A DNA stretch of 64,000 bases from an uncultured Candidatus Babeliaceae bacterium (GCA_963704655.1 OY969927.1:128001-192000); one strand, 5' to 3'. Shown: positions 58,281 through 63,162, numbered from the stretch's first letter. Program-made: numbers and translations. Notes: generated by a model not told the origin, from the letters alone.

Positions 58281-58856
58281 ATGAAGAGATTTATACGAGT
58301 AACATCTGTTTTTGCACTAGTGCCATTATTTGCTATGCAGAAAGACAATGAAGCGTCATCTGACCTTAAAAATATTCCCTGGTCATTACATTCTGTTGCT
58401 GGGAATGAAAAAGGTTCTTCGTGTCTTAGAACTTTTAAAGTTCAGCAGGGTGAACAAGATATAGAATGGGAACATCTAACTTTTGGGATCAAAGTTAATG
58501 AACGTTGTTTTGGATTTTATGAAACACCATTGCAAGCAGCTGTTAAGCAAGCGGACGTACATTCTGTTAAAAAATTATGTGCTGCAGGTGCTGATAGGCA
58601 TGTTAAAATTAAATGCTCTGAATTTAAGACAGTAAACGAATTAGATGCAGCAGCAAAAGAAGCACATTGCGATTGGATTGAGTATTTTCCTACGCCTGAT
58701 CAGGAAGAAAGATTTATTGTAAAAAAAGTGGGCAATTCTTTAACAGGCATTTCTGCTTTGGATCTTGCGGAAAAGCTTTTAATGCAGACAACATCTGGCT
58801 CTGAATTATTAGCCAGAAGAAAAGCAATTTATGATTTGTTAACGTTACAGCAGTAA
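58281..58856 (+). CDS. Secreted protein with ankyrin-like repeat fragments
   Basis: Signal peptide; TPLQAAVKQADVHSVKKLCAAGAD and GISALDLA. Confidence 0.6.
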   Translation: MKRFIRVTSVFALVPLFAMQKDNEASSDLKNIPWSLHSVAGNEKGSSCLRTFKVQQGEQDIEWEHLTFGIKVNERCFGFYETPLQAAVKQADVHSVKKLCAAGADRHVKIKCSEFKTVNELDAAAKEAHCDWIEYFPTPDQEERFIVKKVGNSLTGISALDLAEKLLMQTTSGSELLARRKAIYDLLTLQQ

Positions 58857-58867
58857 AATATATTTTT

Positions 58868-59446
58868 TTACGGGTTATGTATTTTTTTAGCAAAATGTAA
58901 GTGCCCAGCTTTGACATGGTCATCTGCCATTTTTGCCGCTACTAATGAGAGGGTGATAAATGCTGCAGGGATTATGATATCTTCTGAACGAATTTTTTCT
59001 GGTTCTAAGTAGGCCTTCATTGTTGTTGAAAGCGCTGCACCGAATGCCACCCCCAAAAGGAAATGTTTACCACTGTTAATCCACGCAAGACGCTCTAGTT
59101 CAGGATCTTTTACTACGTATGCTTGTAGCTCAGCAGAACGTCTGAGATTTCGTATTTCATCTTGAATTTCGTAGCATGTGTCTTGACGGTTTTTTGCTCT
59201 GCTTGCAAAAAATGAGTCTGCAAAGATGAGTTGCATAAAGTCTCTATGGCTTATAGGGCAGCGATAGATAGCTTTTGTAGAGATTAATGCTGTTATGCCA
59301 GCAAATGTACCGGCAGAAATAAAACCCTCTCGACAGGTTACATAGTCAGAATCTTGAAGTTTTTGTAGCTGTAGTTCAAAATTGTTATTTTCTGCTGCAG
59401 AAAGCGTTGAAACGGTAACCGTAATGATAAATAAAAAATATTTCAT
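58868..59446 (-). CDS. Secreted/membrane orphan protein
   Basis: Signal peptide plus three hydrophobic segments. Confidence 0.65.
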   Translation of the reverse strand: MKYFLFIITVTVSTLSAAENNNFELQLQKLQDSDYVTCREGFISAGTFAGITALISTKAIYRCPISHRDFMQLIFADSFFASRAKNRQDTCYEIQDEIRNLRRSAELQAYVVKDPELERLAWINSGKHFLLGVAFGAALSTTMKAYLEPEKIRSEDIIIPAAFITLSLVAAKMADDHVKAGHLHFAKKIHNP

Positions 59447-59647: not shown

Positions 59648-59681
59648 AAAAAAAGGGCAAGAAATATTTCTTGCCCTTTTT
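59648..59681. terminator. Intrinsic terminator downstream of 59705..60469
   Basis: AAAAAGGGCAAGAAAT-ATTTCTTGCCCTTTTT perfect inverted repeat. Confidence 0.85.
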
Positions 59682-59704: not shown

Positions 59705-60469
59705 TTATCTATAGCGGCCCGCTAAGGCTTGTTGGCGTATCTCTTTTTCTTGTTTAATAAACTCATTTTTAATGCGCTTCATGCGATTACTTTCTAATTC
59801 CGAAGTATTATTAATCATATTGAGGTAAAAATCCGTAGCGCTGGTAAGAGGCTCTTCTGCTTTGCCCATGTATTTCTGGTAGATGGTTGCGCTTTCTTGT
59901 TTTTGTTGTGCAGATTTTTTGAGCTGGTCGATGAGATTTCTTGCCTCATTATAATCTACCTGACAGGGAACTGAAATTCCTTGATTCGTAAGTATTTTGC
60001 CGCTCAAGTAAGAAACAAGAAGCTGTAAGGCAAGTGTGTCTTTTATGGCCGGTGAGATTGTTACATCATCTAATTGTTTTTGAAGTTCTTGTTGAATAGT
60101 TATACCCTTTTTTAAAGCAGGGTTGTAAATTTCTTTTGCATCTTGCATATCATAATAATAGGAACCAACGGTTGCCAACCCCGCGCCGCCTGCTACTGCT
60201 CCTGCAAGAAAAGCTTTTCCTTGCGAACTTGGCGCAGTTTTTGCTGGGTGGTAAATATTTTGCTCATATTTAACATTTTGTCGTAAGGGCGCCGCTGTAG
60301 AAAATGCACGTTTTGGTGCAGGTCGTATAACACGCGGTGCGCTTGTTTGGCTCATGCGTTTTGCTCCGGTGCGTAAAGCACTTGCCGCTTCACCTGCCAT
60401 GGCGTGTATAAGCTGGCCCATAAAGACGATCGCCCCTAAAAAAATATTTTTTGAAAAATTGCTCTTCAT
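59705..60469 (-). CDS. Secreted protein with mitochondrial-presequence-like region (paralog 1)
   Basis: 23-aa signal peptide ending GQLIHA, then MAGEAASALR...KRAFST; hydrophobic AFLAGAVAGGAGLATVG. Confidence 0.8.
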   Translation of the reverse strand: MKSNFSKNIFLGAIVFMGQLIHAMAGEAASALRTGAKRMSQTSAPRVIRPAPKRAFSTAAPLRQNVKYEQNIYHPAKTAPSSQGKAFLAGAVAGGAGLATVGSYYYDMQDAKEIYNPALKKGITIQQELQKQLDDVTISPAIKDTLALQLLVSYLSGKILTNQGISVPCQVDYNEARNLIDQLKKSAQQKQESATIYQKYMGKAEEPLTSATDFYLNMINNTSELESNRMKRIKNEFIKQEKEIRQQALAGRYR

Positions 60470-60585
60470 AATACCTATTCCCCCCTCTTGGTATATTTTC
60501 TATTACGATTTAATCGTAGCATAGTGTGTCATGCGAACGCAAATTTAAAGGAGCTTTATTCTAAAACGTGCTTTTAATTACTCAA

Positions 60586-60676
60586 TCCTTCGATACATTT
60601 TGCTTGCGCAAAACACTCAGGATGCACGGTCTGGTCGTTAGCCGCTCGTGGTGAGCGTAGTCGAATCCATGCGGCC
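60586..60676. repeat. Two family A-type repeats in opposite orientation
   Basis: TCCTTCGATACATTTTGCTTGCGCAAAACACTCAGGATGCACGG and GCCGCTCGTGGTGAGCGTAGTCGAATCCATGCGGC. Confidence 0.75.
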
Positions 60677-60706
60677 AATTTGATGTTTTTAAATCAAGCT
60701 TTGGTT

Positions 60707-61231
60707 TTACGATCTAGGGGTGCCTGGTAAACGAGATTTTGCGTTGTGCAATAAGTTACTTACTTCGAAATATAATTGCGCAGCTTTTAATTTTTCGGGT
60801 GAATTTTCAGCTTTTACCACCCAGGTATCTAGGATAGTGTTTGCAAAATATTCCAGGAGGTAAATATTATCTGGATGTTTACGTGCTATTTCTGCAATTT
60901 TTTCAAGTTGTGCGCTTGTTCTGTCTGCATAAGGATTTTCTGCAAGAATTCTTGCCCGTTCTGCTTGCGCGGTTTCAGCCGTTAACCGAGGTTGTACCGC
61001 TTTTGAAAAAGTGCGCTTGGTTGTGATGATTGTTGGCTGTCGTAATGTTTGCATGGTGGCGGGTCTTAATGCTGTTCGTGCTTGGGCTATGCGTATGGTG
61101 CCTGTTTGGCCAATACGAGTAAACATCGGCCGTACTGCGCGTGCAGTTTCGTTTATTATCATGCAATGCGTATGTTGCCCCACAAAGAGGGTTAAACCGA
61201 CAAGTACTATTTTTAAAGCTTTATTATTCAT
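60707..61231 (-). CDS. Secreted protein with mitochondrial-presequence-like region (paralog 2)
   Basis: 23-aa signal peptide ending GQHTHC, then MIINETARAVRPMFTR...KRTFS. Confidence 0.75.
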   Translation of the reverse strand: MNNKALKIVLVGLTLFVGQHTHCMIINETARAVRPMFTRIGQTGTIRIAQARTALRPATMQTLRQPTIITTKRTFSKAVQPRLTAETAQAERARILAENPYADRTSAQLEKIAEIARKHPDNIYLLEYFANTILDTWVVKAENSPEKLKAAQLYFEVSNLLHNAKSRLPGTPRS

Positions 61232-61262
61232 AGCACACCCACTTTTACTTTTTAAAACGCTT

Positions 61263-62087
61263 TTATCTTACCCTTCGCCCAAAATAGCCTTTAAAGTAGT
61301 AGTTATCCAGATTAAGAAAGGTTTTTGCAGCATCTGCCATCAGCTTAAGAAATTCCCTATATTCTTTTGAACTTCTGCTAAATTTTGGATTTACACTCAG
61401 AGTAGCATCAAAAAAATCGCCTAAATTTCTTAATGCTAGAACTTTTTCTTCCATTTCCTGATCGGTATAACTTGGAAGAGCTTTTGTTTTAGCAAGCATT
61501 TGGGCTGCTTCTTGCAGGGTAAGATGTGCCGCTTGAGGATATTTTGCCGATACTTTTGGCAGATTAATAGCTCGGGATAGTGCTGCGATGCGATCTTCTA
61601 ATGGCTCTTTATCGACTGGTTTATCTTTATATAAATCTATAATGTTGTTAATACTCTGATAGTTAGCAAGAGCTTTAGAAAGTTTCTCCCGTGCTTTCTC
61701 TAAGCCTTGAATATCATTTGGATTTTTTAGGGCCTCTGCTGCGATTTGTTCAGCCTCATGTGCAGGCATTAGTTGTGCTACACTTTCTGCAATAATTTGT
61801 TTAATTGCTGGCGAAGGTGTTGTTGAATAGTTTCGCACAGGAGCTGGGTATGCCATTCTGGCCATCGGTACAAGATTTTGTGTTGTTTTTGAATAATAGT
61901 TCAAGCTTTTTGTTGGAACTGTTGCTGCCGTCAAAAAGGCACGTCCAGTTGCTGCGCGCGCTTGGCCGCCAAAGCGTGTAACGACTGTACGGGCGGCACT
62001 TGCTGCTTCACTTGCCATGCTGTAAGAAAGCTGACCCATAAAGAGGGCTGAAGCTAAAAGTATAATTTTTAAAGATTTGTTTTTCAT
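61263..62087 (-). CDS. Secreted protein with mitochondrial-presequence-like region (paralog 3)
   Basis: 23-aa signal peptide ending GQLSYS, then MASEAASAARTVVTR...VRNYST; GGGGAG RBS. Confidence 0.8.
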   Translation of the reverse strand: MKNKSLKIILLASALFMGQLSYSMASEAASAARTVVTRFGGQARAATGRAFLTAATVPTKSLNYYSKTTQNLVPMARMAYPAPVRNYSTTPSPAIKQIIAESVAQLMPAHEAEQIAAEALKNPNDIQGLEKAREKLSKALANYQSINNIIDLYKDKPVDKEPLEDRIAALSRAINLPKVSAKYPQAAHLTLQEAAQMLAKTKALPSYTDQEMEEKVLALRNLGDFFDATLSVNPKFSRSSKEYREFLKLMADAAKTFLNLDNYYFKGYFGRRVR

Positions 62088-62250
62088 AATGTCTCCCCAT
62101 TGAATAATTAATATTTCTAACTATGATTTAATTTTATCAAAAAAAGAGATAAAATTGCAAGTAACTGGTTATATTTTAACTATTTTAAACCTTTTTTACA
62201 GATTTTTTCTCATGAAAAAGGGCCGGTAAAACCGACACTTAATGTAAACA

Positions 62251-62331: not shown

Positions 62332-63162
62332 ATGAAAATTGGTTTTTTAAAGACTGGGCTTTTGGCGCTTGTTGCAGTTACAGTTTCATTGCAAGCAGTT
62401 TATAATGACGTAACGGTTTTAAGTTTTATAAATGAATTGTCAATTCAAGCAGGAGGCAAGCAGCCTGAGATTGCCTATAGAGTATTAAATCCAGATAATA
62501 GCGTAATTCAAGATTGGAAGGTTTTTTCTGGGCAACAGGAAAATGTTAATATTGTTTTGAAAAGAAAAACTGGTAGATTTGAGAAATTAGAATTTAAAGG
62601 GGTTGGCTACGATAGTAAAGGTTGGTACCCTGTGAACTACAAAAAAGATACGCCAAGTTTTTATTATCAACCAGATGGATATAACAAATCGCTTCATATT
62701 AAACTTAAAGAGTTTGAAATAGAAGAAGCCAATGCGCTTGAGACTACGGTTAAAATTAATAAAGTACGTATTGTCTCGATACAAAATTCTTTTGGCGTAG
62801 ACGCTATAGCAACATTTTCTGATGGGCAGGAATTTAATATACCCAAAAATTCAACAGTTACCATAAATATGGTTTCATCTATGCCCCTTTCGTACATAAT
62901 ATTATATGGTGATTATTGGCCCACGACGGGAATGAAACCTATACCTGATAGGATTGACCCATCTTTGGTAGATAAAGATGGTATAGTAAATTTCGCAATC
63001 ATATGGGGTGGAAAAAATTCATCCGATCAGTTTAAAGTGATTGTACCAACAATGCAAGCACAAGCCGCTACTCCAACAAAATTTGGCTTAGGTAGTACTG
63101 GTACAAAAGCTCCTGCGCATGCAGGCAGAAACGCACCTATTGAAGAATTAGGAGTTGATTAA
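62332..63162 (+). CDS. Secreted orphan protein, beta-strand-rich
   Basis: GAGGGG RBS; signal peptide MKIGFLKTGLLALVAVTVSLQA. Confidence 0.78.
   Translation: MKIGFLKTGLLALVAVTVSLQAVYNDVTVLSFINELSIQAGGKQPEIAYRVLNPDNSVIQDWKVFSGQQENVNIVLKRKTGRFEKLEFKGVGYDSKGWYPVNYKKDTPSFYYQPDGYNKSLHIKLKEFEIEEANALETTVKINKVRIVSIQNSFGVDAIATFSDGQEFNIPKNSTVTINMVSSMPLSYIILYGDYWPTTGMKPIPDRIDPSLVDKDGIVNFAIIWGGKNSSDQFKVIVPTMQAQAATPTKFGLGSTGTKAPAHAGRNAPIEELGVD

Follow-up and report, generated by a model that had tools for sequence, protein, structure and literature searches.

Sec-Type Signal Peptides Ahead of Presequence-Like Leaders in a Dependentiae Genus: Candidate Proteins for Host Mitochondria

The present analysis concerns three head-to-tail genes on the minus strand of a 64,000-nucleotide stretch, here called the window, from the genome of an uncultured Candidatus Babeliaceae bacterium (GCA_963704655.1, OY969927.1:128001-192000). 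Their products, termed paralogs 3, 2 and 1 in 5′ to 3′ order on that strand, begin with a predicted Sec-type signal peptide that is followed by a leader rich in Arg, Ala, Ser and Thr and poor in acidic residues. The best explanation for this arrangement is targeting to a host organelle, most likely the mitochondrion, after Sec export, to which a probability of roughly 45% is assigned. In a first stage, the cleavable signal peptide would carry the protein out of the bacterial cytoplasm. In a second stage, the exposed leader of 34-65 amino acids (aa) would work as a targeting peptide for a host organelle, most likely as a mitochondrial matrix-type presequence that a host processing peptidase would cut at a distal R-x-(F/Y)-S motif. 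The leader would be free at the N-terminus only if the signal peptide is removed, as is predicted. The same genus appears to insert such a leader between signal peptides and unrelated passengers, including J domains that would be able to engage mitochondrial Hsp70. Often the leader is accompanied by a weakly hydrophobic segment rich in Gly and Ala, which would be let through by the Sec channel of the bacterium and might then serve as an anchor in a membrane of the organelle. The three genes are, to judge by sequence, tandem duplicates, and the trio is, among the sequences searched, confined to one genus of Dependentiae (TM6).

Signal Peptides and Leaders of the Tandem Paralogs

The original prediction had described three tandem paralogs sharing a 23-aa signal peptide, each followed directly by Met and by 45-75 aa rich in Arg, Ala, Thr and Ser with a single acidic residue. 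Open reading frames (ORFs) of this kind were located on the minus strand, and the stretch up to the second acidic residue measures 45, 62 and 77 residues in paralogs 1, 2 and 3, respectively. Their features are the following.

61263-62087, minus strand: paralog 3, 274 aa, with signal peptide, leader and helical domain
62019-62087, minus strand: paralog 3 signal peptide (aa 1-23), with n-region MKNKSLK, 11-residue uncharged core and c-region GQLSYS; predicted cleavage after SYS or after SMA (aa 25)
61824-62018, minus strand: paralog 3 leader (aa 24-88), with RNYS at aa 85-88; six Arg, three Lys and one acidic residue over the 77 aa to the second acidic residue
60707-61231, minus strand: paralog 2, 174 aa, with its start codon 31 nt past the end of paralog 3
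61163-61231, minus strand: paralog 2 signal peptide (aa 1-23), with n-region MNNKALK, 11-residue core IVLVGLTLFVG and c-region QHTHC
61004-61162, minus strand: paralog 2 leader (aa 24-76), with RTFS at aa 73-76; nine Arg, two Lys and one acidic residue over the 62 aa to the second acidic residue
59705-60469, minus strand: paralog 1, 254 aa
60401-60469, minus strand: paralog 1 signal peptide (aa 1-23, or 1-25 with A-M-A), with n-region MKSNFSK, 10-residue core IFLGAIVFMG and c-region QLIHA(MA)
60299-60400, minus strand: paralog 1 leader (aa 24-57), with RAFS at aa 54-57; six Arg, three Lys and one acidic residue over the 45 aa to the second acidic residue
60152-60214, minus strand: Gly/Ala-rich uncharged segment of paralog 1 (aa 86-106), followed by YYY; at least eight Ala/Gly in 14 uncharged residues

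In the trio, K-rich n-regions precede uncharged cores of 10, 11 and 11 residues, and the c-regions follow a G-Q-x-x-x-small pattern. The cores of the other six members of the leader class defined below comprise 11-14 residues, the median for all signal-peptide-like proteins being 12, and Lys or Arg is present in the n-regions of the trio and of the remaining members alike. Small residues were placed at -3 and -1 by an own-script heuristic, giving I-H-A or A-M-A in paralog 1, T-H-C in paralog 2 and S-Y-S or S-M-A in paralog 3; the signal-peptide caller itself was a crude script of our own, which flagged 47% of ORFs. Cores of 10-14 residues are too short for a membrane anchor, and the anatomy is that of a predicted cleaved Sec-type signal peptide. 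A Tat signal peptide was rejected, since the n-regions of the trio carry Lys only and the Arg residues lie after the core and c-region.

Met24 is present in all three proteins as originally described; in paralogs 1 and 3, however, the mature protein may not begin with it, because it could occupy position -2 of an A-M-A or S-M-A peptidase site. Most leaders have Met at their junction with the signal peptide. Across the predicted secretome, Met at the +1 position was recorded in 41 of the 605 other signal-peptide-like proteins (6.8%, versus 2.2% Met overall), which may be an artefact of start-codon choice or a genuine habit. As to translation, G-rich Shine-Dalgarno-like boxes are found ahead of 7/8 Met1 codons and ahead of 0/8 internal Met codons. 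All three paralogs have one before the ATG, namely GGGGAG in paralog 3, GTGGGTG in paralog 2 and AGAGGGGGGA in paralog 1. The signal peptide is therefore predicted to be translated, because such a box precedes Met1 of all three paralogs and none precedes Met24, and Met24 was rejected as an internal start on the same count. The public gene call P0002 (238 aa) begins paralog 1 at Met17 and cuts off most of the signal peptide, so that the bipartite leader would escape automated annotation. A candidate rule, by which the first seven mature residues are without positive charge, fits the trio and fails in leaders of congeners.

Up to the R-x-(F/Y)-S motif, which was recovered in each paralog (RAFS, RTFS and RNYS), the leaders measure 34, 53 and 65 aa in paralogs 1, 2 and 3, and their net charge (Arg plus Lys minus Asp plus Glu) to the second acidic residue is +8, +10 and +8. 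The genome as a whole prefers Lys, with an Arg/(Arg+Lys) ratio of 0.36. A ranking of the 614 signal-peptide-like proteins, based on the excess of Arg over acidic residues in the first 40 aa past the predicted signal peptide, puts paralogs 1 and 2 among the top five and paralog 3 at position 16. A foreign origin was considered through Arg codon use, which proved unremarkable (CGN 80% in leaders versus 72% genome-wide). An AlphaFold2 model of paralog 3 is all-helical with a mean predicted local distance difference test score of 48, and residues 48-92 are without secondary structure, at low confidence. The Gly/Ala segment that had been noticed in paralog 1 was confirmed and is uncharged.

Mitochondrial presequences are characterized, in the part of a published account that was available (PMC12895284), as peptides of 10-70 aa, Ser/Thr-rich and without acidic residues, cleaved at the MPP site after an Arg at -2 or -3. 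The leaders of the trio appear to match the published length, charge, acid-poverty and Ser/Thr richness, and the likeness to eukaryotic matrix presequences covers positive charge and the lack of acidic residues; it would extend to an Arg 2-3 residues before the cleavage point if the leaders are cut at the putative site. Unlike eukaryotic presequences, they belong to bacterial genes, lie behind a bacterial signal peptide, are Leu-poor by eye and, in the trio, are without a demonstrable amphipathic helix.

A Leader Class with a Processing-Like Motif

A genome-wide count of such leaders had been proposed against free-living controls; it was run against two related genera. With fixed criteria (a signal-peptide-like N-terminus whose next 40 aa contain at least four Arg, at most one acidic residue, at most two Lys and at least ten Ser, Thr and Ala), 9 of the 614 signal-peptide-like proteins among 1315 called genes were retained, and they fall into six unrelated groups. 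Under the same criteria, none was found among 915 such proteins in the two other genera of the same family (0/420 in G008 and 0/495 in G006, the latter GC-matched), a difference with Fisher p=0.0003, uncorrected for paralogy. Gly/Ala-rich uncharged segments occur in 29/1315 genes, among them four of the nine class members versus 25 of the other 1306.

The motif was compared with composition-preserving shuffles. R-x-[FYL]-[STA] was present in 13/19 leaders versus 3.6 expected and, when independent groups were counted, in 5/6 versus 1.17 expected (p=0.0014), whereas the strict form R-x-[FY]-[ST] was present in 8/19 versus 0.8 expected. It usually occurs once per leader, mostly in the distal half, and was recovered in four of the five groups left out of its definition.

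Unrelated Passengers Behind the Same Leader

Two neighbouring members of the class carry a J domain immediately behind the leader.

G000:C1:692702-694240, plus strand: signal peptide, basic leader and J domain (HPD present)
G000:C1:694447-695790, plus strand: signal peptide, basic leader and J domain (HPD present), with a C-terminal Gly/Ala-rich segment

An orthologue of a J-domain carrier in a congener shows signal peptide, Met, leader, R-E-Y-S, J domain and C-terminal Gly/Ala-rich segment in this order. Of the six proteins whose J domain scored above the Pfam cut-off, five have a signal-peptide-like N-terminus. A J domain would have no use in a periplasm that lacks Hsp70 and ATP, and proteins exported by this organism therefore probably arrive in a compartment of the host; of the J proteins, just the two with a leader would go on to an organelle. 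Three further proteins, at G000:C1:399321-400664 (plus strand), 760804-762309 (minus) and 367156-369204 (minus), combine a J domain and a signal-peptide-like N-terminus with no basic leader, and two of these show, by eye, WD40-like repeats and a C-terminal J domain.

A second passenger is the C-terminal domain of g217418, which had no match in Pfam, NCBIfam or the ESM Atlas. The matches listed comprise 17 homologue ORFs; all but one belong to other genomes of this bacterial family, the exception belonging to a different family of the order. One of the 16 frames from the same family ran off its contig, so that an N-terminus could be read in 16 (15 of the same family plus the exception). Of these 16, six, all from congeners, have a signal peptide plus leader, eight were read as a signal peptide alone and two could not be classified. 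A Gly/Ala-rich segment occurs in five of the six leader-bearing homologues. Across these predicted architectures, the leader behaves as a portable module. Congener G002 alone has eight matches to this domain, several in tandem (contigs C10, C11, C43 and C51; L127, L134, L138, L140, L142, L144 and L145).

Weighing the Explanations

The proposal that a bacterial signal peptide is followed by a presequence is partly supported, by the architecture, the composition, the enriched motif and the gene content of an ATP-importing parasite described below; an amphipathic helix was not demonstrable in the trio. Several observations weigh against mitochondrial targeting. In the trio, the hydrophobic moment compared with shuffles gave p = 0.08, 0.21 and 0.63 for paralogs 1, 2 and 3 in an 11-residue window and p = 0.18, 0.04 and 0.24 in an 18-residue window, paralog 2 alone falling below 0.05. 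Class-wide, the 11-residue test was not significant (Fisher 0.085) and the charge-only helical moment was at chance (3/19 leaders, Fisher 0.63), with basic residues unclustered on one face; in favour of the presequence reading, the 18-residue window gave p<0.05 in 9/19 leaders (Fisher 0.004 when group medians are combined). Visual inspection shows leaders with little Leu and much Thr, Gln, Pro and Gly, as would be expected of a disordered or plastid-type peptide more than of a classic helical presequence. In several leaders from congeners, Arg stands at +3/+4 past the signal peptide, and early positive charge hampers Sec export in model bacteria. Additionally, the motif was originally spotted in the trio itself, secretins are the only candidates identified for outer-membrane passage, and the class is missing from two related genera, so that a host-targeting role, if it has one, would not be phylum-wide.

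The main rival places these proteins in the bacterial envelope, held by an uncleaved anchor or by a signal peptide plus stop-transfer segment, the Arg stretch being a positive-inside loop or a disordered periplasmic linker and the J carriers being DjlA-like co-chaperones of the bacterium's own DnaK. The positive-inside rule predicts a strongly positive cytoplasmic flank after a hydrophobic N-terminus, and L138 has four Arg in the first 15 residues past its hydrophobic segment versus two Lys before it. In J692702, the J-domain part is matched by the NCBIfam DjlA model (E=6e-10, short of the curated cut-off), the second uncharged Gly/Ala-rich segment of many carriers could span a membrane, and the weak amphipathicity in the trio points the same way. 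However, the 10-14-residue cores with Pro/Gly/polar c-regions and small residues at -3/-1 are those expected of cleaved signal peptides, too short to anchor, and Lys or Arg is found in every n-region. In one domain family, paralogs without a leader join a signal peptide of this kind straight to the domain, so the passenger appears to be exported. Moreover, the positive-inside rule leaves unexplained the enriched distal R-x-(F/Y/L)-(S/T/A) motif, the choice of Arg rather than Lys is unexplained in a genome where Lys prevails, and the Gly/Ala-rich segments are, by composition and by the general energetics of membrane insertion, weakly hydrophobic. An envelope location is thus considered unlikely, without being negligible. 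The leader could instead be a second-step bacterial sorting signal or pro-peptide, serving secretin passage, vesicle loading, surface display or inactivity and removed by a bacterial protease at R-x-(F/Y)-S. Such a role would accommodate a modular, position-specific leader with a conserved distal motif in a genome with two secretins, and the occurrence of the class in one genus among those examined is as expected of lineage-specific sorting; we nevertheless know of no bacterial sorting signal of this form, and type II secretion reads folded proteins, not linear leaders. The parasite's own M16 (processing-peptidase-like) protease was rejected as processing enzyme: the sole one found would not meet exported proteins because it has no signal peptide. 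This alternative also offers no reason for exporting J domains, which have no use where Hsp70 and ATP are lacking. For one cultured member of the phylum, the available part of the source describes outer-membrane vesicles (PMC6561590), on which such a second step could draw. A bacterial second step is on balance rather improbable.

Mimicry of a plastid transit peptide, in a plastid-bearing protist or algal host, would suit leaders of 45-77 aa that by eye are Ser/Thr/Ala-rich and Leu-poor and often start with Met-Ala, a composition that resembles transit peptides at least as much as presequences, and weak amphipathicity would suit it too. Complex plastids, however, require entry via the host endoplasmic reticulum, and the mitochondrial-carrier gene of this genome, described below, points to mitochondria. 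The sole documented bacterial precedent for a signal peptide plus organelle peptide is chloroplast-directed (PMC5808351, in the part available); against this, the hosts of cultured Dependentiae named in the accessible text are amoebae and one heterotrophic flagellate (PMC6561590), and R-x-(F/Y/L)-(S/T/A) is a mitochondrial processing pattern (R-2/R-3, PMC12895284). Plastid targeting is accordingly regarded as very improbable. Hardly more credit is given to the idea that the leader has no specific function and is a fast-evolving low-complexity spacer inherited by duplication, its presequence look being a compositional accident. The trio is one duplication family, so its shared features count once; basic stretches as such are common in the genome, and the AlphaFold structure is not confident. 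Chance is nonetheless unlikely because the architecture recurs in six independent, unrelated groups, was found in neither of two related genomes, including a GC-matched one, and is accompanied by motif enrichment over shuffles; the association with Gly/Ala segments (4/9 versus 25/1306) and the persistence of leader character while sequence and length drift argue in the same direction. Targeting to a host organelle, most likely the mitochondrion, is therefore retained as the best explanation at the tentative level stated above.

Relatives of the Trio

The trio constitutes the only family members by sequence in this genome, and a profile search of 1.84 billion representatives returned the three paralogs and one true outside relative, P0005; a repeat protein in the same search was taken as spurious, since it matches a helical stretch. 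Among 101 related genomes, family members were found only in congener G001, as two tandem genes, a match in G071 being doubtful (E=0.005, 47 residues within a 1058-aa frame). P0005 and the products of the two G001 genes begin with a signal peptide and Met, continue with an acid-poor leader of about 21-25 residues that contains Arg and with helical modules bearing 'AL(K/R/E)NP', and have a Gly/Ala-rich segment at the C-terminus. Thus, leader character is kept among the relatives of the trio, and its length and sequence drift.

Other searches returned little. A word-based homologue search with paralog 3 recovered the query alone, a family-alignment scan of genome contigs confirmed nothing, neither Pfam nor NCBIfam placed the trio in a family above the curated cut-off, a PDB profile search for the trio gave nothing below E=0.09, and the ESM Atlas had no usable match for paralog 1 or the C-terminal part of g217418. 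Among public sequencing runs, no RNA set was listed, and small shares were found in metagenomes only.

Two observations lie outside the class. Signal-peptide-bearing proteins with long Gly/Arg-rich (RGG-like) stretches were seen in two genera, at G000:C1:1172749-1173486 (minus strand) and at G006:C1 near 71992. An ORF at G006:C1 near 832995 has a signal-peptide-like N-terminus and a basic linker of about 50 aa that falls outside the class criteria; what follows the linker we take to resemble the N-terminal motif of Fe/Mn superoxide dismutase.

The Organism and Its Lifestyle

The genome (G000) is one contig of 1,298,077 bp with 38% GC, and the nearest named relative of its GlmS, at 52% identity, is a candidate division TM6 bacterium. 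It encodes ATP/ADP translocases, the two secretins and about eight ankyrin loci, and from this gene content the organism looks like a Dependentiae-type (TM6), ATP-importing energy parasite of eukaryotic cells. A mitochondrial-carrier-family gene (G000:C1:359843-360685, plus strand; 280 aa, three Mito_carr repeats, signal-peptide-like N-terminus) is also present, the family being found in 0/14 control genomes; its product might be destined for the host mitochondrion or serve in the parasite's own membrane. In the accessible part of its description, Chromulinavorax is credited with 98 ankyrin proteins (PMC6561590), versus the roughly eight ankyrin loci here. The same text reports a cultured Dependentiae member wrapped by the host mitochondrion and identifies no effector, and 'transit peptide' has 0 occurrences in the paper; its available passages, in which no search for the word 'presequence' was made, do not mention presequences (PMC6561590).

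The Locus and Its Surroundings

The three paralogs are 25-30% identical pairwise, the first ~60 residues being the best conserved part. Their downstream domains had been described as divergent, which is largely so; they nevertheless have a helical '..I...AL(K/R)NP' element in common and are not wholly divergent. The similarity noticed in the DNA upstream of paralogs 1 and 3 corresponds to a 22-nt element lying 23 nt before the ATG both times. The elements outside the coding regions are the following.

62111-62132, minus strand: paralog 3 copy of the shared 22-nt element, 23 nt ahead of its ATG, abutted by a promoter-like site at 62160-62131
60493-60514, minus strand: paralog 1 copy of the shared 22-nt element, 23 nt ahead of its ATG, with a promoter-like site upstream at 60585-60558
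59650-59681, minus strand: past the end of paralog 1, a 32-nt perfect palindrome (reverse self-match) with a T run behind it; likely terminator

The palindrome does not figure in the output of a consensus scan. A dispersed short repeat lies at 60556-60681, between paralogs 2 and 1, and has 37 more matches of 22-74 bp across the genome. The trio is flanked by orphan ORFs at 58281-58856 (plus strand), 58868-59446 (minus) and 62332-63162 (plus), which have signal-peptide-like N-termini, one of them with a weak ankyrin match. Taken together, the trio and its three neighbours resemble a small island of exported proteins, as far as their predicted N-termini tell.

Relation to Known Systems

Delivery of bacterial proteins to host mitochondria or chloroplasts is known for Legionella LncP, for Map and EspF of enteropathogenic Escherichia coli and for Pseudomonas HopI1, which are delivered by type III or type IV systems and are not known to have a Sec signal peptide ahead of the organelle signal. 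Within the organelle, HopI1 acts as a J-domain effector, and LncP is a mitochondrial-carrier-family protein; a gene of this family is likewise present in the genome analysed here. Ats-1 of Anaplasma phagocytophilum was reportedly found as a type IV secretion candidate; its N-terminal targeting sequence, which is reported to undergo cleavage, is not known to be preceded by a Sec signal peptide, and the protein is unrelated in sequence as far as is known. This effector is imported into host mitochondria, according to the portion of the report available (PMC2824752).

The two J-domain class members resemble DjlA-type J proteins in that a hydrophobic N-terminal segment with a basic flank is combined with a J domain. 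Unlike DjlA, their cores are of 11 and 14 residues with signal-peptide c-regions and the J domain is not C-terminal, and the trio is without a J domain. The same order of two topogenic signals is found in proteins of complex plastids, where a signal peptide precedes a transit peptide that is exposed by removal of the first; such proteins are encoded by host nuclear genes and enter the endoplasmic reticulum through Sec61. Here, in contrast, the first step would use SecYEG, and the heterokont-type aromatic +1 residue was not seen.

The closest precedent is Las5315, a Sec-dependent effector of Candidatus Liberibacter asiaticus, in which, according to the available part of the report (PMC5808351), a Sec signal peptide is followed by a 56-aa chloroplast peptide predicted by ChloroP and then by the passenger. 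It shares with the present proteins a bacterial Sec signal peptide directly before a eukaryotic organelle-targeting peptide. It differs in being a single, chloroplast-directed protein of an alphaproteobacterial plant pathogen, whereas the class described here has multiple modular members, a mitochondrial-type motif and a TM6-type parasite as its bearer. In the literature searches made on Dependentiae, TM6 and Babelota, nothing was found linking them with mitochondrial targeting sequences or mitochondrial carriers. The original prediction knew of no description of such a family, which holds for Dependentiae as searched, but the general idea was preceded by Las5315. What appears to be new is that a single Dependentiae genus has a presequence-like second leader which is modular and serves several passengers, a kind of leader foreshadowed by that protein.

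Biological Meaning

Dependentiae are widespread and almost uncultured, and their handling of the host is largely unknown. The class described here is a sequence-defined, countable set of candidate mitochondrion-directed effectors with a short, mutable motif. If the leaders are bacterial membrane loops, the finding is an ordinary one. It is possible, though put at somewhat less than even odds, that a portable two-step address, made of a Sec signal peptide and a host presequence with its processing site, often together with a Gly/Ala membrane segment, installs the parasite's own proteins in the host mitochondrial matrix or inner membrane and so gives control over the organelle that supplies its ATP. 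If this is true, plain Sec export combined with presequence mimicry can replace the type III or type IV injection of the known mitochondrion-targeting effectors, and the leaders would represent a natural case of presequence evolution outside eukaryotes.

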